Shown one piece after another: positions 4,287 to 26,464 of a stretch of 31,915 nt of DNA. The notes under the pieces are model-generated. The model did not search any database and was not told the origin of the DNA. It saw nothing but the letters and a program-made list of their open reading frames with translations. A program made the translations under genes and the position numbers. This stretch comes from Burkholderiales bacterium (GTDB lineage: Bacteria; Pseudomonadota; Gammaproteobacteria; Burkholderiales; SG8-39), in contig JADGRR010000001.1 in NCBI GenBank assembly GCA_017880745.1, positions 1-31,915 on the forward strand, given 5' to 3'. Positions within the stretch are counted from its first letter, which is position 1. Each line of letters starts with the position of its first letter.

Positions 4287-6692
4287 CTAGTTACCGGTCC
4301 CGCGGGCAGCAACAGGGCGCGCAGCCCGCAGCGCGCGCCATACCCGGTTTGGCGTCGCCGGCATGTCGAGCTCGCGCACGCCCGCGGGTCGCAGCGCGGC
4401 GAGGACTGCGTTCATGGTCGCAGGCAGCGCGCCGGAGGTGCCGGATTCGCCCACGCCCTTGGCGCCGAGCGCGTTGGCCTTGGTCGGCACGGGGTGCTCG
4501 CCGCAGCGTATGCCGCGCATCCAGTCGGCGCGCGGCATCGGGTAGTCCATGAAGCTGCCGGTAAGCAGTTGCCCCGTTTCGTGATCGTGAATCGCGTGTT
4601 CGCCCAGTGCCTGTCCCACTCCCTGCATCACGCCGCCGTGCACCTGCCCCTCGACGCTGGCGCGATCGATGGCGTTGCCGACGTCATCCACGGTGGTATA
4701 GGCGAGCAGGTCCACCGTGCCGGTGTCCGCATCGATTTCGACCTCTGCGATGTGGCAGCCATTGGGGAAAGTCACGCCGAACAGGCAATCGGCGGCGCAA
4801 TCCATCGGGTGCGCTGCGCGATGCGCCGCGGTCTGCGCCGTGCCCGCAGTCGCGGCGAGCCGGCGCGACAGTTCGAACAGGCCGATGCTGCGGCCCGCCG
4901 CGTGGAAGGCGCCATCTGCGTATTCCACCGCCGGCAATTCCGCGCCCGGCACACCCTGGCCAGCGTGAAGCACCCCGTGGCCAGCGCGAAGCACCCCATG
5001 GCCAGCGCGAAGCGCTGCGGCGGCGTGCACTTTCGCCGTGTCGATGATTTTCGGCCCGAGCAGCTTGAACGCGCTGCCCGCGCCGTACAGCGAGCGCGAG
5101 CCGCCGGTGCCGTTGCCTACCTGCGGCAGATCCGGGTCGCCTTCGTGGAAATGCACACGTTCGCCTGATATGCCCAACTCTGAAGTGACGATGTTGACGA
5201 AGGTCGTTTCGTGGCCCTGGCCGCCGGACTGCGATACCGCATAGAGGTGCAGGTCGCCGTCGGCATCGAAGCGCGCGAATACCTCATCCCTGGGCGCGCC
5301 CCCCGCGCCGCTGGCTTCGAGGAAGGTGGCCATGCCGATGCCGCGCAGCCTCCCCGCGCGCGCCGATTGCTCGCGCCGCGCGGGAAATCCCGCCCAGTCG
5401 GCGAGCGCGAGCGCCTTGTCCATCACCGCGGCGAATTCGCCGCAGTCGTAGGTGGTACCGTTTGCGGTTTTGTAGGGCATGGCTTCGGGCGGGACGAAAT
5501 TCCGGCGCCGCAGCTCGACCGGGTCGAAACCGTGTTCGGCCGCAGCGTGATCGACCAGCCGTTCGATGGCGCAGGCGATGTCCGGCCGCCCGGCGCCGCG
5601 GTAGGAGGACACCGGCGTGGCGTTCGAGTAGGCGAGCCGGGCGCGCGCGTACAGCGCCGGGATGCGGTAGACGCCGCCCATGGTGATGGCGAGATTGCGC
5701 GTGCCGACCAGGGCGCCGAACATGGTGGCATAAGCCCCGAGGTCGCCGCGGTCGTCGAAGCGGATGGCGAGGAAGCGCCCGCCGGCGTCGAGCGCAAGCT
5801 CGCCCGTCAGCGACAATGCGCGGCCGTGGTTCTCCGACAGGAACAGCTCCGATCGCGTCGCCACCCATTTCACCGGGCGGCCGAGTTTCTGCGTGGCGAG
5901 CACCAGCGCGATCGACTCGGCGTAGGCGGGGCCGCGAATGCCGAAGCTGCCGCCGACGTCGCGCGTGACCACGCGCAGCTTTTCCGCGGGCAAGCCGGTG
6001 ACCTGCGCCAGCTGGCCGCGCATGCCGTTGATGCCCTGGCTCGGCGTATACACGGTGACCACGCCGCTCCCGGCGTCGCGGTCGGCGATGAAGGCGCGCG
6101 GTTCGATCGGGCTGCCGACCAGGCGCTGGCTGTTCATGGTCATGCGACTTGTGAACGCCGCACGCGCGAACGCCGCCTCGACCGCCGCGGCATCGCCCGA
6201 CTCGTATTCGAACGCGAGGTTGCCCGGCGCCTCGAGGTGTATCTGTGTTGCGCCGGCGCGCGTCGCGTCGTCGAACCCCACCGCCGCAGGCAGGTCCTCG
6301 TAGTCGAGCGCGATGTCTTCGGCTGCGTCCTGCGCGAGCAGCACGCTTTCGGCCACGACCAGCGCGAGCGGCTGGCCGACGTAGTGGACGCGGGTGCGCG
6401 CGAGCGCCGGCCAGAAGGGTTTTTTCATTTTCTGGCCGGCCACACCGTCGAACGCGATGCCCCCGGGGAGCGACTTGAATCCGGCCTCATCCAGGTCGGC
6501 GGCGGTGAGCACCAACTGCACACCCGGTCGCGCGCGCGCCGCCTGCGTGTCGATGCCGAGAATTTTCGCGTGCGCGCGGTCGGCGCGCAGAAAGTAGGCG
6601 TAGAGCTGCCGCGGCAGGTTCCAGTCGGCGGTGTAGCAGCCCCTGCCGGTCAGCAGGCGCTCGTCTTCGCGGCGGAAGGATTTTTCAGTCAC
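4287..6692 (-). CDS. Xanthine dehydrogenase-family molybdopterin-binding (large) subunit, CoxL form II-like
   Basis: RREDERLLTGRG, VGGSFG, SYRGAGRP, GQGHET, GTGGSRS and AKGVGESG motifs. GTG start at 6692 overlaps the DinB-family stop (GTGA). The ORF-track extension to 6944 overlaps the DinB gene. Confidence 0.9.
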   Translation of the reverse strand: MTEKSFRREDERLLTGRGCYTADWNLPRQLYAYFLRADRAHAKILGIDTQAARARPGVQLVLTAADLDEAGFKSLPGGIAFDGVAGQKMKKPFWPALARTRVHYVGQPLALVVAESVLLAQDAAEDIALDYEDLPAAVGFDDATRAGATQIHLEAPGNLAFEYESGDAAAVEAAFARAAFTSRMTMNSQRLVGSPIEPRAFIADRDAGSGVVTVYTPSQGINGMRGQLAQVTGLPAEKLRVVTRDVGGSFGIRGPAYAESIALVLATQKLGRPVKWVATRSELFLSENHGRALSLTGELALDAGGRFLAIRFDDRGDLGAYATMFGALVGTRNLAITMGGVYRIPALYARARLAYSNATPVSSYRGAGRPDIACAIERLVDHAAAEHGFDPVELRRRNFVPPEAMPYKTANGTTYDCGEFAAVMDKALALADWAGFPARREQSARAGRLRGIGMATFLEASGAGGAPRDEVFARFDADGDLHLYAVSQSGGQGHETTFVNIVTSELGISGERVHFHEGDPDLPQVGNGTGGSRSLYGAGSAFKLLGPKIIDTAKVHAAAALRAGHGVLRAGHGVLHAGQGVPGAELPAVEYADGAFHAAGRSIGLFELSRRLAATAGTAQTAAHRAAHPMDCAADCLFGVTFPNGCHIAEVEIDADTGTVDLLAYTTVDDVGNAIDRASVEGQVHGGVMQGVGQALGEHAIHDHETGQLLTGSFMDYPMPRADWMRGIRCGEHPVPTKANALGAKGVGESGTSGALPATMNAVLAALRPAGVRELDMPATPNRVWRALRAARPVAARGTGN
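4950..5012. repeat. In-frame 21-bp x3 tandem repeat in the molybdo-enzyme gene
   Basis: CACACCCTGGCCAGCGTGAAG / CACCCCGTGGCCAGCGCGAAG / CACCCCATGGCCAGCGCGAAG. Encodes LRAGHGV-LRAGHGV-LHAGQGV on the minus strand. Confidence 0.9.
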
Positions 6693-17047: not shown

Positions 17048-18010
17048 ATGAAAGCAGCGTGGATTGCGGCAATCGCGCTTGCTGTGGCCGGGAGCGCGCT
17101 GGCGCAAGGCAGCTATCCGGCGCGCCCCGTCACCATGGTGGTCGGTTTCGCGCCCGGAGGCGGCACCGATACGGTGGCGCGCATCGTCGCCAAGAATCTC
17201 GGCGAGAGCCTCGGCCAGCAGGTGCTGGTCGAGAACCGCGCGGGCGCGGGCGGCTATATCGCCACCGAATATGTGGCTCGTGCGGCCCCGGACGGCTATA
17301 CGATACTGCTCGGCAACGTCGGCTCGCTCGCGGTAACGCCGCACATGATCGTCAGCCCCAGTTACGACCCATTGCGCGATTTCGCACCGATCACCATGGC
17401 GGTGGTGTTCGCCAACGTGATCGTGGTGCCGTCCTCGGTGCCGGCGCGGACGCTGGCCGAGTTTGTGAAGCTGGCGCAGGCGAAGCCGGGGACGGTCACC
17501 TACGGCACGTCCGGCATCGGCGGCGCCGGCCACCTCGCCGGCGAGCTGTTCAAGACCAGGGCAAACATCGACTTGGTCCACGTGCCTTACAAGGGCGGCG
17601 GTCCGTCGATGCAGGGCCTGCTGGGCGGTCAGGTCATGTCGAGTTTCGCGACGCCGGTGTCCGTAGTCGAGCACATTAAGGCGGGCAAACTCCGCGCGCT
17701 CGCCACCACCGGGCCGAAGCGGGCGGCGCTGCTGCCCGACGTGCCGACGGTGGCCGAGTCTGGCTATCCCGGCTTCGAGGCGATGAACTGGTACGCCTAT
17801 GTGGCACCGGCAAAGACGCCGAAGGAGATCATCGAGCGGCTGAACCGCGAACTGGTGAAGGCGCTCAACAACGCGGATGTCGCGGCCCTGCTGCACCAGC
17901 AGGGGCTCGAACCCAGCCCCAGTTCGCCCGCGGAGCTGGCCCGTTACATGGAGCGCGAGTACCAGACCTGGGGCAAGGTGGTGAAACAGGCCGGCATCAA
18001 GGCGCAGTGA
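17048..18010 (+). CDS. Bug/TctC-family (tripartite tricarboxylate transporter) substrate-binding protein
   Basis: YPARPVTMVVGFAPGGGTD, VENRAGAGG, PDGYTILL, YGTSGIGG..HLAGE and HVPYKGGG motifs. Signal peptide ending ALAQ. Confidence 0.92.
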   Translation: MKAAWIAAIALAVAGSALAQGSYPARPVTMVVGFAPGGGTDTVARIVAKNLGESLGQQVLVENRAGAGGYIATEYVARAAPDGYTILLGNVGSLAVTPHMIVSPSYDPLRDFAPITMAVVFANVIVVPSSVPARTLAEFVKLAQAKPGTVTYGTSGIGGAGHLAGELFKTRANIDLVHVPYKGGGPSMQGLLGGQVMSSFATPVSVVEHIKAGKLRALATTGPKRAALLPDVPTVAESGYPGFEAMNWYAYVAPAKTPKEIIERLNRELVKALNNADVAALLHQQGLEPSPSSPAELARYMEREYQTWGKVVKQAGIKAQ

Positions 18011-18060
18011 CGGCGAACCCGCCGCGGCTGCCGCTTGCGGCCGGGATCCGAGGAGCAACC

Positions 18061-18648
18061 ATGGACAAGACACAGGAGCGCAGCCGCGAGATCGACGCTG
18101 CCGTGGCCGATATCCGCGCCATCGAGCAGCGCGACGGCGTCACGCGCGCAAGCCTCGCGAAAATCCGCCAGCGGCTGATCCAGCTCGCCGCGCGCACCGA
18201 TCTGTTTACCGTGCAGGACTTTCCACCGCCCGCGCCCGGCGGCGCGCGCAACTCCTGCCTCTATCGCCTGGCCGAGGACGCCGACCACCGCTTCGCGCTG
18301 TATGCCAATTCCTCCCTCGGCGGTTACGCCACGCCCGCGCACAACCACACTACGTGGGCGGTGATCGTCGGCGTGAGCGGCGAAGAACTGAACCGCTTCT
18401 ACGATCGCACCGCCGAAAACGGCGTGCGCGAAAAAGGCCAGCATGTGGTGCGGCAGGGCTCGGGCGTGTCGTTCATGCCCGAGGACCTGCATTCCATCCA
18501 CATCGACGCGCCGCTGCTGAATTTCCACATGTACGGCCTCGCGCTGGAGCAGTTGCACCGGCGCGAATTCTACAAGCCCGACAAGCACGCCTGGGGAATA
18601 TTCCCGCCGCATTCCGACATTCGTGAAGCGCGAACCGGCCGCGCATGA
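18061..18648 (+). CDS. Cysteine dioxygenase-family thiol dioxygenase
   Basis: Cupin 3-His set (AHNHTTWAVI, DLHSI) and FHMYG. SD GAGGAG before ATG 18061. Confidence 0.82.
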   Translation: MDKTQERSREIDAAVADIRAIEQRDGVTRASLAKIRQRLIQLAARTDLFTVQDFPPPAPGGARNSCLYRLAEDADHRFALYANSSLGGYATPAHNHTTWAVIVGVSGEELNRFYDRTAENGVREKGQHVVRQGSGVSFMPEDLHSIHIDAPLLNFHMYGLALEQLHRREFYKPDKHAWGIFPPHSDIREARTGRA

Positions 18649-18774
18649 GCCCGCCGGGCCGCCCCAAGGGCGAATCCTTGGCGCGAAGCGACAAGGTAAT
18701 CCAATGAGCCCGCCGGGCCGCCCCAAGGGCCGCATCTTCGATATGGGCTTGGCGCGAAGCGACAAGGTATTCCA
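18645..18774 (+). repeat. Two tandem copies (59 nt, 71 nt) of a small repeat element, each encoding a coupled mini-ORF
   Basis: Shared 27-nt head ATGAGCCCGCCGGGCCGCCCCAAGGGC and 27-nt tail CTTGGCGCGAAGCGACAAGGTA(A/T)TCCA. Units are 18645-18703 and 18704-18774. Confidence 0.85.
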
Positions 18775-20382
18775 TTGACCCGCGTCATTTCGCCCGCGGC
18801 GCTGCGCGAGCTCCTGCTCTCCGCTACCGAGATCGCGCTGCTCGACGTGCGCGAGCAGGGCGTGCATTGCCAGGGGCATCCATTCTTCGCCTGCGCGCTG
18901 CCGCTATCCAGGCTGGAACTGATGGTCGGCGACCTGGTGCCGCGGAGCAGCGCGCCTATCGTGCTGATCGACGGCGGCGGCGAGGGTCTGGCCGAGCGCG
19001 CCGCGGCCAAGCTCGCCGAACTGGGCTACACCGACATCGCGATCCTCGAGGGCGGCTGCGCCGGCTGGAAGGCGGGTGGTGGCGAGCTCTTTTCCGGCGT
19101 TAACGTTCCGTCCAAGGCCTTCGGCGAATTCGTCGAACACCATTACGACACGCCGCGGGTGCCGCCGCAGGAAATCAGGCGGCTGATCGACAGCGGCAGA
19201 AAGCTCGTCATCCTCGATTCGCGGCCATACGCGGAATACCACCGCATGAGCATCCCGGGTGCGATCGATACGCCGGGCGCCGAACTGGTGTATCGCGTGC
19301 ATGACCTCGCGCCCGACCCGGAGACGCTGGTGGTGGTGAATTGCGCCGGCCGCACGCGCAGCATCATCGGCTGCCAGTCGCTCAGGAATGCCGGCATTGC
19401 CAACCAGGTCGTGGCGCTGAAGGACGGCACCATGGGCTGGGAACTCGCCGGCTACCAGTGCGAGCGCGGTTCGACCGGCGCGGCGAGCGCGCCCAGCGCT
19501 GCGGGCGAGGCGAAGGCGCGCGCCGCCGCAGAACACGTGGCGCGGCGCTTCGAAGTGAAATTCGCGACGCGCGGAGAGGTCGAGTCCTGGCGGCGCGATC
19601 CCGGCCGCACTTTGTACCTGCTCGACGTGCGCACGCGCGAGGAATTCGAGCAGGTGCGCATCGCCGGTTCGCGCCATGCGCCGGGCGGACAGCTCATCCA
19701 GGCGACGGACGAATTCGTCGGCGTGCGCGGCGCGCGCATCGTATGCATCGATCCGGCGCGGGTGCGCTCGGTGATGACCGCGTCCTGGCTCAATCAGATG
19801 GGCTGGAGCGAAGTCTATGTGCTCCAGCCCGAAGGCAGGGACGGCTTTGCCGGCTGGACGCTCGAGTCCGGCCCGCGCAGTCCAACCCCGCTCGGCTTCA
19901 AACCCTGGCGCACCGTCACGGCGCGGGAGCTGGTGCAGCGCCGGCAACAGGGCGGCGTGACGGTGCTCGATCTTGCGACCAGCCTCAGGTTTCGCGAGCG
20001 CCATATCCCTGGCGCCTGGTGGGCGGTGCGCGCGCGGCTGGATGAGGCGCGCGCGAAGCTCGCCGATGCGCAGGCGCTGGTTCTGACATCGGAGGACAGC
20101 ACGCTCGCGCATCTGGCGGCGCCAGAAGCCGCCGCACTCTGGCCGGATGCGGAAGTGAGTGTGCTCAAGGGCGGCAATGCGATTTGGTTCGCGGTGAAGC
20201 TGCCTGCCGAGACCGGTATCGCGAATGCGACCACCACGCCGGACGACGTCTGGTACAAACCTTACGATCACGACCACGCCCAGGACTACGAGAAGCACGC
20301 GCGTGCTTACCTCAGCTGGGAAGTCGCGCTGGTCGAGCAGATCAAGCGCGATCCCACGATCCGTTTCCGCTGCTACGACTGA
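18775..20382 (+). CDS. Multi-domain (four-repeat) rhodanese-related sulfurtransferase
   Basis: Four rhodanese repeats (LLDVRE, ILDSRP, LLDVRT, VLDLAT). Only repeat 2 has a Cys loop (NCAGRTRS). TTG start with AAGGT 6 nt upstream. Confidence 0.88.
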   Translation: MTRVISPAALRELLLSATEIALLDVREQGVHCQGHPFFACALPLSRLELMVGDLVPRSSAPIVLIDGGGEGLAERAAAKLAELGYTDIAILEGGCAGWKAGGGELFSGVNVPSKAFGEFVEHHYDTPRVPPQEIRRLIDSGRKLVILDSRPYAEYHRMSIPGAIDTPGAELVYRVHDLAPDPETLVVVNCAGRTRSIIGCQSLRNAGIANQVVALKDGTMGWELAGYQCERGSTGAASAPSAAGEAKARAAAEHVARRFEVKFATRGEVESWRRDPGRTLYLLDVRTREEFEQVRIAGSRHAPGGQLIQATDEFVGVRGARIVCIDPARVRSVMTASWLNQMGWSEVYVLQPEGRDGFAGWTLESGPRSPTPLGFKPWRTVTARELVQRRQQGGVTVLDLATSLRFRERHIPGAWWAVRARLDEARAKLADAQALVLTSEDSTLAHLAAPEAAALWPDAEVSVLKGGNAIWFAVKLPAETGIANATTTPDDVWYKPYDHDHAQDYEKHARAYLSWEVALVEQIKRDPTIRFRCYD

Positions 20383-22338: not shown

Positions 22339-22454
22339 GGTCTCACCTCATTCGGCCCAGACCAGTCTAACGCAAGCTTCGCCGGAGCGCGAACGCCTCC
22401 GGGGCGTTGCGCCTGCGGCGAGGGCAACGCGGCGCAGGCGCGCTGTTCCCCCCG

Positions 22455-22519
22455 CGCCTCACTCAACCCTTATCCCGGTCGCCGCGGCCACGCGCGTCCA
22501 TTTTTCCACGTCGGCCGCG
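22455..22519 (-). pseudogene. Orphan 3'-end fragment of a bug gene (direct repeat of 25489-25553)
   Basis: Translates to AADVEKWTRVAAATGIRVE* versus AADVEKWTRVVAATGVKVE* at the end of the 25493-26464 gene. 57/65 nt identical. Confidence 0.85.
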
Positions 22520-25371: not shown

Positions 25372-25492
25372 TCCCCGGCCGCACGGTATCCAGGACGCCA
25401 GCGATGCCCATGCAAAGGAACCTGCAGCGCATCGCCGTCGGTCTCGTCCACTGGCCAAGCTCGACGACATTGCCGAACCGGTGCCGCCCGCC

Positions 25493-26464
25493 TCACTCCA
25501 CCTTCACCCCGGTCGCCGCGACCACGCGGGTCCACTTCTCCACGTCGGCCGCGATATAGCGCGCGAACGCTTCGGGGGTGTTGCCACCGGGCTCGGCGCC
25601 GAGTTCGAACAATTGCTTCACCATGTCCGGCTGCTTCAAGATGTCGCCGATGTTCTTGTACAGCAGGTCGATGACGGGCTTGGGGGTGCCGGCGGGCGCG
25701 AGCAGGCCGAACCAGGCCGAAACTTCGTAGCCGGGCAGGCCGCTCTCGGCCATGGTCGGGACATCGGGCGCGCCCGGCCAGCGCTTCGTCGTGGTCACTG
25801 CGATCGCGCGCAACTTGCCCGAGCGTATGTGCCCGATCGAGGAGGGCATGTTGTCGAAGCCCATCTGGATCTGCCCGCCGACGAGGTCGATCAGCATCGG
25901 TCCTGCGCCTTTGTAGGGGATGTGCGTGATGTCGATGTTCGCCATGGTCTTGAACAGTTCGCCCGCCATGTGCGGCGATCCGCCCGGGCTGGTCGAGCCG
26001 AAATTCAGCGTGCCCGGCTTGGCGCGCGCCAGCGCCAGCAGTTCCTGCAGATTCTTCGCCGGGACCGAAGGATGCACGGTCAGCACGTTGGGCGTATTCC
26101 CGACGATGGTGATCGGCGCGAAATCCTTCACCGCGTCGTAGGGCAGGTTCTTGAACAGCGCCGAGTTGATGCCGTGCGTGCCGATCGTGCCCATGCACAG
26201 CGTATAGCCGTCGGCCGGCGACCTGGCCACGGCCTGCGTGCCGATCGCGCCGCTCGCACCGCCGCGGTTCTCGACGATGAATGACTGCTTCAGCCGCTCG
26301 GTGAGGCGCTGGGCAATCACGCGCGCAAGTATGTCCGTAGTCCCGCCGGGCGGATAGGGCACGATGATTTTCACCGGCTTGTCCGGGTACTCGGCGAGTG
26401 CGCTCGCCGCCGCGCAACACAGCGCGACGATGATCAAGCCGAGAAAACGCTTCAGATTATTCAT
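25493..26464 (-). CDS. Bug/TctC-family substrate-binding protein
   Basis: YPDKPVKIIVPYPPGGTTD, VENRGGASG, ADGYTL and HIPYKGAG motifs, signal peptide. ATG overlaps the upstream TGA. Confidence 0.92.
   Translation of the reverse strand: MNNLKRFLGLIIVALCCAAASALAEYPDKPVKIIVPYPPGGTTDILARVIAQRLTERLKQSFIVENRGGASGAIGTQAVARSPADGYTLCMGTIGTHGINSALFKNLPYDAVKDFAPITIVGNTPNVLTVHPSVPAKNLQELLALARAKPGTLNFGSTSPGGSPHMAGELFKTMANIDITHIPYKGAGPMLIDLVGGQIQMGFDNMPSSIGHIRSGKLRAIAVTTTKRWPGAPDVPTMAESGLPGYEVSAWFGLLAPAGTPKPVIDLLYKNIGDILKQPDMVKQLFELGAEPGGNTPEAFARYIAADVEKWTRVVAATGVKVE

Follow-up and report, generated by a model that had tools for sequence, protein, structure and literature searches.

Short units at ATGA gene junctions of uncultured Burkholderiales: probable copies of a near-neutral relay repeat related to BRE

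ATGA overlaps, in which the stop codon of one gene and the start codon of the next share nucleotides, are the tightest joints in bacterial operons. In an uncultured Burkholderiales bacterium, one such joint is occupied by two short units of 59 and 71 nt (18645..18703 and 18704..18774), which separate the gene of a thiol dioxygenase relative from that of a rhodanese sulfurtransferase within a window of 31,915 nt (the whole stretch of DNA analysed, positions 1 to 31,915 of contig JADGRR010000001.1, assembly GCA_017880745.1). Each unit opens a mini open reading frame (mini-ORF) that leads from the preceding stop codon to the next start codon, and the locus thus raises the question of what these units are and how they can lie in so tight a joint. 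The units probably represent a small relay repeat that is non-autonomous, dispersed and able to expand in tandem, inserts at the ATGA of start codons and is close to neutral for its host. The element is a lineage-specific member, with 59- and 71-nt forms and an AAGG tail, of a Burkholderiales-wide repeat family that is probably related to BRE and has the design of the mycobacterial MIRUs.

Placement and insertion at start codons

All features of the locus lie on the forward strand. The 5' ATGA (18645..18648) contains both the stop codon of the upstream gene and the start codon of mini-ORF 1 and represents the original stop/start overlap. Unit 1, the short form (55 nt plus one ATGA), carries a mini-ORF of 20 codons (18645..18707), whose TGA overlaps the next ATG (ATGA, 18704-18707), while the mini-ORF of unit 2, the long form, comprises 24 codons (18704..18778) and ends in a TGA that overlaps the TTG start codon of the rhodanese gene (TTGA, 18775-18778). 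The units differ by an internal segment of 5 nt in unit 1 and 17 nt in unit 2 (18731-18747), within which the extra 12 nt of the long form are located. In each of them, AAGGT is found 6 nt ahead of the next start and within a hairpin (H3). This layout, including the NTGA bounds, the 20- and 24-codon mini-ORFs, the 59- and 71-nt lengths, the AAGGT spacing and the hairpin, had been described in an earlier sequence-only reading of the window and was borne out in every detail by the sequence and its translation.

The window's genome is a metagenome-assembled genome (MAG) of 3.6 Mb (612 contigs, 77 % complete) from a permafrost metagenome, and its genus was represented by 23 genomes of uncultured Burkholderiales, all of them MAGs. 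These were searched with a head pattern and with a tail-only pattern that did not include ATGA, and all matches were fetched. Two further ATGA-bounded copies were found in the window's genome, the long form between livM-like and livG-like genes and the short form between era and recO. The 23 genomes together contain 64 non-redundant units in 55 arrays, distributed over approximately 27 distinct junctions of unrelated genes. All matches with both head and tail are located at junctions, headless matches are chance occurrences inside genes, and the tail-only pattern revealed no true copy away from junctions in the 23 genomes. Among the tetranucleotides at the 5' end of the units, ATGA was counted 54 times, GTGA four times and TTGA once; for the 3' tetranucleotide, which always lies 7 nt past the tail, the corresponding counts are 56, 4 and 2. 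In metatranscriptome contigs, the head is abundant and has many different flanks, possibly as a result of DNA carry-over.

At 22 of the 27 sites, the 5' TGA terminates an upstream frame of 100 codons or more, whereas approximately five sites resemble plain start codons, one of them with AGGAGG 5 nt upstream, and therefore the feature common to all sites is the start codon and not the overlap with a stop. Most of the sites are stop/start overlaps, as proposed in the sequence-only reading, but the overlap is not obligatory. For comparison, no more than 603 of the 21,724 ATGA sites in the genome are flanked on both sides by long in-register frames.

The immediate surroundings of the ATGA are also biased when the 27 sites are compared with a baseline of candidate overlaps. 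Position -2 is G at 67 % of the sites (30 % in the baseline) and position -1 is C at 89 % (41 %), while downstream of the tetranucleotide G is found at position +5 in 81 % (23 %) and C at position +6 in 74 % (45 %). The resulting insertion context is GC-ATGA-GC (GCATGAGC sites). The downstream GC equals the start of the element itself (ATGAGC), so that a longer duplication, or a mechanism driven by microhomology, is conceivable.

Orthologous loci lacking the units show how they arrived. The dioxygenase/rhodanese junction reads as a plain ...GCGC ATGA NNN in nine genomes of the genus, but it is filled in the window's genome (G000, 59 + 71 nt) and in its closest relative G008 (59 nt), and decayed 59-nt copies are present in G021 and G007. 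Because the empty orthologous sites carry a single ATGA, the insertion consists of 55 or 67 nt and a second ATGA. In the gene tree, the filled clades (G000, G008; support 95/91) and (G021, G007; support 98/93) have empty lineages between them, which indicates at least two gains at one and the same ATGA, or several precise losses. Moreover, the sequences of two insertions specific to G021 differ by 1 nt, and their sites are empty (plain ATGA) in three to five other genomes; these near-identical insertions therefore point to recent movement of the element. The sequence-only reading, which took the units for a near-neutral repeat targeting junctions, is supported by two of the tests that it had proposed, as the head and tail searches gave true copies solely at (A/G/T)TGA junctions, with lengths of 59 or 71 nt, and the empty sites are direct ATGA overlaps.

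The number of units at a site also varies. A contig of a relative from a peat metagenome omits exactly 18645-18703 and retains the long unit alone, G008 has only the short unit at the window's site and hence no counterpart of 18704..18774, both forms are also found at other shared sites, and tandem arrays of two to three units are present elsewhere. The arrays evidently grow and collapse as variable-number tandem repeats (VNTRs) do.

Several individual copies depart from the common layout. In L078:3678-3740, the 5' end reads TGGA in place of ATGA, and therefore the upstream frame (674 open codons or more) enters the element and ends on the TGA overlapping the next start, so that a 20-residue C-terminal extension of repeat sequence is added to the upstream protein. 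In L047 (G011:C98), the head is expanded and contains internally reiterated GGGTCGCCC-type segments, and the copy still ends on the downstream ATGA. At the dioxygenase/rhodanese junction, the two genes are fused in L213 (G012:C293) into a 923-codon open frame with neither stop codon nor ATGA, and in L008 (G008:C216) the rhodanese frame past the element stops after 51 codons, owing to a frameshift or an assembly error of the MAG.

The genes that flank the units in the window had been named as dioxygenase and rhodanese in the sequence-only reading. The upstream gene (18007..18648, stop codon TGA at 18646-18648) encodes a 213-aa relative of thiol dioxygenases resembling mercaptosuccinate dioxygenase; this protein had no matches in Pfam or NCBIfam, and the dioxygenase label is fair because it matches the mercaptosuccinate dioxygenase structure 8vni (PDB) at E 7e-29. 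The downstream gene (18775..20382) encodes a rhodanese sulfurtransferase of 535 aa with four rhodanese domains; its start codon is TTG in the window and ATG in both G008 and the peat relative.

Conservation of reading frame and hairpins

The two common unit lengths, 59 nt (n=30) and 71 nt (n=28), are both of the form 3n+2. Rare units of 60 or 72 nt are always the first member of a tandem array, where the extra base puts the first frame in phase with the second unit, and the chain consequently still ends on the downstream start. The relay of overlapping stop and start codons is unbroken in 52 of the 55 arrays. Even the decayed copies of G021 and G007, which have lost their hairpins, are still 59 nt long and retain an open frame that ends correctly. 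The tail provides a tetranucleotide resembling a Shine–Dalgarno (SD) sequence, which is AAGG in 47 of 58 units.

Three hairpins with triloops are conserved within the unit. In unit 1, H1 (18649..18659, GCCC-GNC-GGGC) is followed by H2 (18660..18672, CGCCC-CNA-GGGCG), in which C-to-T changes lead to G-U pairs, and by H3 (18676..18696), which has a GNA triloop in a GCGNAGC core and carries the SD-like AAGG in its 3' arm (18693-18696), 7 nt before the next ATG; in unit 2, H3 occupies 18747..18767 with AAGG at 18764-18767. The H3 of unit 1 (CCTTG-G-CGC-GAA-GCG-A-CAAGG) has a folding energy of -8.3 kcal/mol as RNA and -7.4 kcal/mol as single-stranded DNA (ssDNA; z -4.15). The exceptional stability of the GCGAAGC core, noted in the sequence-only reading, agrees with the literature, according to which the GCGNAGC mini-hairpin, a GNA loop closed by C-G, is very stable as DNA (PMC13037366). 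Pairing in H2 and H3 is retained in 83.6 % of cells, compared with 29-45 % in slid controls, and one pair changes from UA to CG between the window-type units and a sister family described below. RNAalifold kept the H2 and inner H3 stems alone, with little covariation, and an Rfam scan of 18300-19100 returned two sub-threshold chance matches only.

The distribution of changes among copies indicates which property of the unit is maintained. Counted by codon position, variation amounts to 50/43/33 in the short form and 70/53/58 in the long form, with no enrichment at third positions, while the variable sites are the middle bases of the three triloops (GNC, CNA and GNA), one mismatch pair and a 7-nt linker. 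Since variation is centred on the triloops and not on third codon positions, it is the nucleic-acid structure that is conserved and not the peptide. A switch fold, in which CCAAGG pairs with CCTTGG, lies 1.1 kcal/mol above the three-hairpin fold and is not favoured because the variable positions include the three loop centres of the latter. The conserved hairpins are probably what the mobilizing machinery, or the mRNA, needs.

These features suggest how an inserted unit might preserve the joint. The element inserts into a start-codon ATGA, usually one overlapping the upstream TGA stop and preferably in the context GC-ATGA-GC, always in the same orientation relative to the genes, and the ATGA is duplicated in the process. 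The first of the two ATGs, now served by the former initiation signals of the downstream gene, could then open the 20- or 24-codon frame, and the 3n+2 length would set its TGA on the next ATG. A ribosome translating the mini-ORF would open H3, in whose 3' arm the SD-like AAGG is presumably masked 7 nt before the next ATG, terminate on the TGA and restart on the overlapping ATG with the aid of AAGG. The layout of the element would in this way preserve the translational link between the two genes, which is probably the reason for its tolerance.

Relatives of the element

One copy, in G019, has a different tail, and its core matched at least 120 contigs from Variovorax, Polaromonas, Piscinibacter, Ramlibacter, Caldimonas, Rubrivivax and others. 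Among the matches listed, nearly all units of this sister family are bounded by ATGA, 59 nt long and provided with a GGAGG that lies 7 nt upstream of the 3' ATG, and 71 of 77 arrays retain the relay. With nhmmer, the profile of the window-type units matched the sister family over its full length (positions 1-75) in dozens of copies (E 1.5e-7 to 1e-3), and a joint MAFFT alignment of both gave a mean column identity of 83 %. The two families thus share the ATGA bounds, the 59-nt unit, the hairpin positions and the spacing of the SD sequence, but they differ in the tail arms (ACCGC.../...GGAGG in the sister family, CCTTG.../...CAAGG in the window type) and in the head, which is 1 nt shorter in the sister family and compensated elsewhere, so that the mini-ORF peptide differs. 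The 71-nt long form was not met among the listed matches of the sister family, the long forms of which carry other inserts.

Eight of the listed sister-family units are 60 nt long and read in frame into the next gene. L147, L149, L152, L095, L130 and others have such 60-nt or other 3n units, which would provide the downstream protein with a repeat-derived N-terminal extension of approximately 20 residues if the first ATG is used. In-frame units of this type would explain odd terminal extensions in annotations. PPGRPKG-like terminal extensions had been mentioned tentatively in the sequence-only reading and are plausible in view of these relatives and of the upstream frame that enters the element in L078. 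A literature search for peptide strings, GEYRSAQ and GRPKGE among them, gave no match.

The closest described repeat is BRE, a betaproteobacterial repeat of approximately 90 bp with VNTR behaviour, which is found in Bordetella, Polaromonas, Delftia and others (Hot et al. 2011, PMC3110155). Its similarity criterion was more than 70 % identity over approximately 40-90 bp, 'partial' forms of 40-60 bp were listed in Polaromonas, Delftia and others, and neither a function nor a placement rule was proposed, with ATGA placement and mini-ORFs unmentioned (PMC3110155). True copies of BRE from Bordetella read GCCGCCGGGCCGCCCC. At 12 Bordetella/Achromobacter loci, the similarity to the window-type profile was confined to a 19-nt head (positions 7-25 at every copy, nhmmer E ~3), with no significant match past it. 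Both elements share the head motif CCGCCGGGCCGCCCCAAGG, are betaproteobacterial, consist of GC-rich modular hairpins with a GCGCAGCG-type tail hairpin and behave as tandem VNTRs; the window type is dispersed in the manner of BRE (mostly intergenic, with an overlap of a few bases with ORF ends), given that all 64 units of the 23 genomes lie at junctions, and its arrays vary likewise (59 + 71 nt in G000, 59 nt in G008, the long unit alone in the peat relative). Unlike the window type, however, canonical BRE of Bordetella is approximately 83-90 nt long, is flanked by T-runs after terminator-like hairpins and is not bounded by ATGA. In Bordetella bronchiseptica, L232, L235, L244 and L249 contain BRE arrays of two to five or more units with a period of 80-83 nt, the visible starts of which are located at or just past a T-run, several of them behind a terminator-like hairpin and none of them ATGA-bounded. 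The placement of these arrays thus differs from that of the Comamonadaceae-type units.

The design itself has a precedent in another phylum. According to a summary of Supply et al. 1997 (PMC12548453), MIRUs are short dispersed repeats of mycobacteria, frequently arranged in tandem and differing in copy number, which lie at start codons within operons and whose internal ORF is coupled to the next gene by a -4 (ATGA) overlap. The same relay, with a mini-ORF starting on the upstream stop codon and stopping on the downstream start codon, is seen in the window-type element, with 52 of 55 arrays unbroken and an upstream frame of 100 codons or more at 22 of 27 sites. As far as that summary goes, both elements are thought to be mobile and to be tolerated since coupling stays, and for neither is a transposase known. 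Their sequences are apparently unrelated, and the likeness is one of analogy, proposed without an alignment; compared with MIRUs as summarized there, the window-type element is shorter (59/71 nt) and has three triloop hairpins and an extended target, GC-ATGA-GC. The novelty of the locus was therefore overstated in the sequence-only reading, as the design is that of MIRUs (PMC12548453, as far as summarized) and the sequence belongs to a family probably related to BRE (PMC3110155). It is a modest one, that of a new lineage-specific member of this family.

REP/BIME repeats with RAYT and the PATEs derived from IS200/IS605 are likewise short, rich in GC and able to form hairpins, lie next to a conserved tetranucleotide and lack inverted terminal repeats, but REPs are extragenic, usually lie after stop codons, occur in both orientations and show no phasing of mini-ORFs. 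In the window itself, a perfect 23-nt inverted repeat with an 8-nt spacer (GTGGGAGCGAGCTTGCTCGCGAA and its complement, 315-368) has a REP-type look, and Y1_Tnp/RAYT-like genes are present in the genus. Rickettsia palindromic elements and Correia/NEMIS elements are small palindromic repeats that are tolerated at sensitive sites. The former insert in frame within genes and are tolerated since reading frames are preserved; the latter, which have inverted terminal repeats and a TA target, are tolerated since they provide signals for expression. To our knowledge, neither of these is tied to stop/start overlaps.

Spread of the element and its tolerance by the host

As an ssDNA-hairpin element, the repeat might be of the IS200/IS605 (PATE) or REP/RAYT type, with a Y1 transposase of the HUH class that reads subterminal hairpins, cuts 3' of ATGA and inserts the element behind an ATGA in the target. 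In this case, one ATGA would be the target and the other the right-end cleavage site, instead of a duplication, and the relay would be incidental. The fixed orientation relative to an asymmetric tetranucleotide, the hairpins near both ends without inverted terminal repeats, the end of H3 7 nt before the 3' ATGA and the GNA triloops of the very stable ssDNA mini-hairpin (PMC13037366) are all consistent with this route, as is the finding that the short unit, when measured against shuffles, folds better in the form of ssDNA (z -2.81) than in that of RNA (z -1.06). The transposase domain Y1_Tnp (PF01797) was found in 16 of the 23 genomes, all of them MAGs, including the window's genome, but it was not found in G002 (96 % complete), G010 and G008, which hold at least five, seven and four copies, respectively. 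A co-occurring HUH partner, for which a search had been suggested in the sequence-only reading, did not emerge from these MAGs. Furthermore, the left hairpin adjoins the ATGA, unlike the spacing known from IS608, the G/C preference at +5/+6 on the far side of the insertion is unexpected if the 5' target alone is read, and the conservation of the 3n+2 length is left unexplained, all of which makes this explanation unlikely.

Spread could also proceed without a dedicated enzyme, by microhomology-driven template switching or illegitimate recombination between the ATGAGC(C) of a junction and the ATGAGC(C) at the start of a unit, with slippage producing tandem arrays. The 3' flank reads ATGAGC, equal to the first 6-7 nt of the element, at approximately 20 of 27 sites against a baseline of 15 %, tandem arrays with gain and loss of units are common, and a partner gene was not found in the 23 genomes. 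Nevertheless, some targets share ATGA alone, such as the ATGACC at the window's site, and the strong preference for C at -1 and G at -2 lies outside the homology with the 3' end of the element. Given that a homology of 6-7 nt is also very short for repeated ectopic events, enzyme-free spread appears improbable.

A domesticated regulatory cassette beneficial to the host, the hairpins and mini-ORF of which set protein ratios, stabilize or process the mRNA, or condition downstream translation, would account for the persistence of copies across species (the junction of a two-component system is filled in eight genomes and livM/livG in six), for AAGG as the SD-like tetranucleotide in most units and for the location of the SD sequence in the 3' arm of H3 in both families despite its different form (AAGG versus GGAGG). 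However, the junctions belong to genes with no function in common (ABC transporters, era/recO, a two-component system, the thiol dioxygenase), most of their orthologues function without the element, and short and long forms interchange at one site. Since the copies of G021 and G007 have in addition lost the hairpins and kept length and frame alone, a regulatory role of this kind is doubtful to a similar degree.

The idea that the mini-ORFs encode a functional micropeptide, MSP(T/P)GRPKGESLARSDKV.., is favoured by the open frame of almost every copy and by the conserved look of the peptide, but it can be rejected as highly improbable, because third codon positions are not the focus of variation, most of the unit is read in another frame in the +1 variants, the sister family keeps the DNA and reads a different frame into a different peptide, and decayed copies keep length alone.

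The reading of the units as a non-autonomous, near-neutral relay repeat has to be weighed against several observations. Although an ATGA is present on both sides of the element and single in empty sites, as in a miniature inverted-repeat transposable element, the terminal inverted repeats of such elements are absent (the post-ATGA end, GCCCGNCGGGCC..., and the pre-ATGA end, ...AAGGTARTCCA, do not form a reverse-complementary pair), the 23 genomes revealed no parent element of greater length that shares the head or the tail, and neither a transposase nor any other partner was identified among them, with no correlation for Y1_Tnp. Whole-unit RNA folding energies are unremarkable (z -1.06 and +1.09; 0.19 for a 176-nt region), and an open 20-codon frame is not rare by itself in sequence of 68 % GC. 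Instead of being targeted, overlaps could be enriched through selection acting on insertions at random ATGA sites, and the genus genomes are MAGs, in which repeats are often under-assembled. Finally, we infer the translation of the mini-ORFs, and the dependence of downstream translation on them, from the arrangement of codons and signals.

A broader view may be put forward tentatively, as a possibility that is clearly less probable than not: BRE-type repeats would form a widespread mobile class that homes to overlap start codons in the orientation-locked context GC-ATGA-GC by an enzyme or RNA route yet unknown, with the relay of mini-ORF and hairpin-masked SD sequence as an evolved 'stealth' device that is sometimes co-opted to retune the protein ratios of operons.

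Two other repeats were observed in the window. Three tandem 21-nt units, about 75-93 % alike, at 4942-5011 possibly correspond to an in-frame 7-residue repeat in a gene, and a 70-nt direct repeat with 86 % identity (22450-22519 and 25484-25553, 3 kb apart) probably represents paralogous gene ends.

The rule of placement, the context of the target, the repeated gains and the indels that maintain the frame deserve to be recorded, since the published description of BRE does not include them, and they supply BRE-related repeats with a rule in the form of ATGA bounds, 3n+2 length and the context GC-ATGA-GC. The family would account for odd N- or C-terminal extensions and for small 'hypothetical proteins' in annotations, and it offers VNTR-type markers. 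An element that lands on an ATGA joint and rebuilds it shows how selfish DNA may colonize essential operons harmlessly, and the presence of the family across the Burkholderiales, including cultured Variovorax and Polaromonas, constitutes a natural repeated experiment on the coupling of termination and reinitiation.

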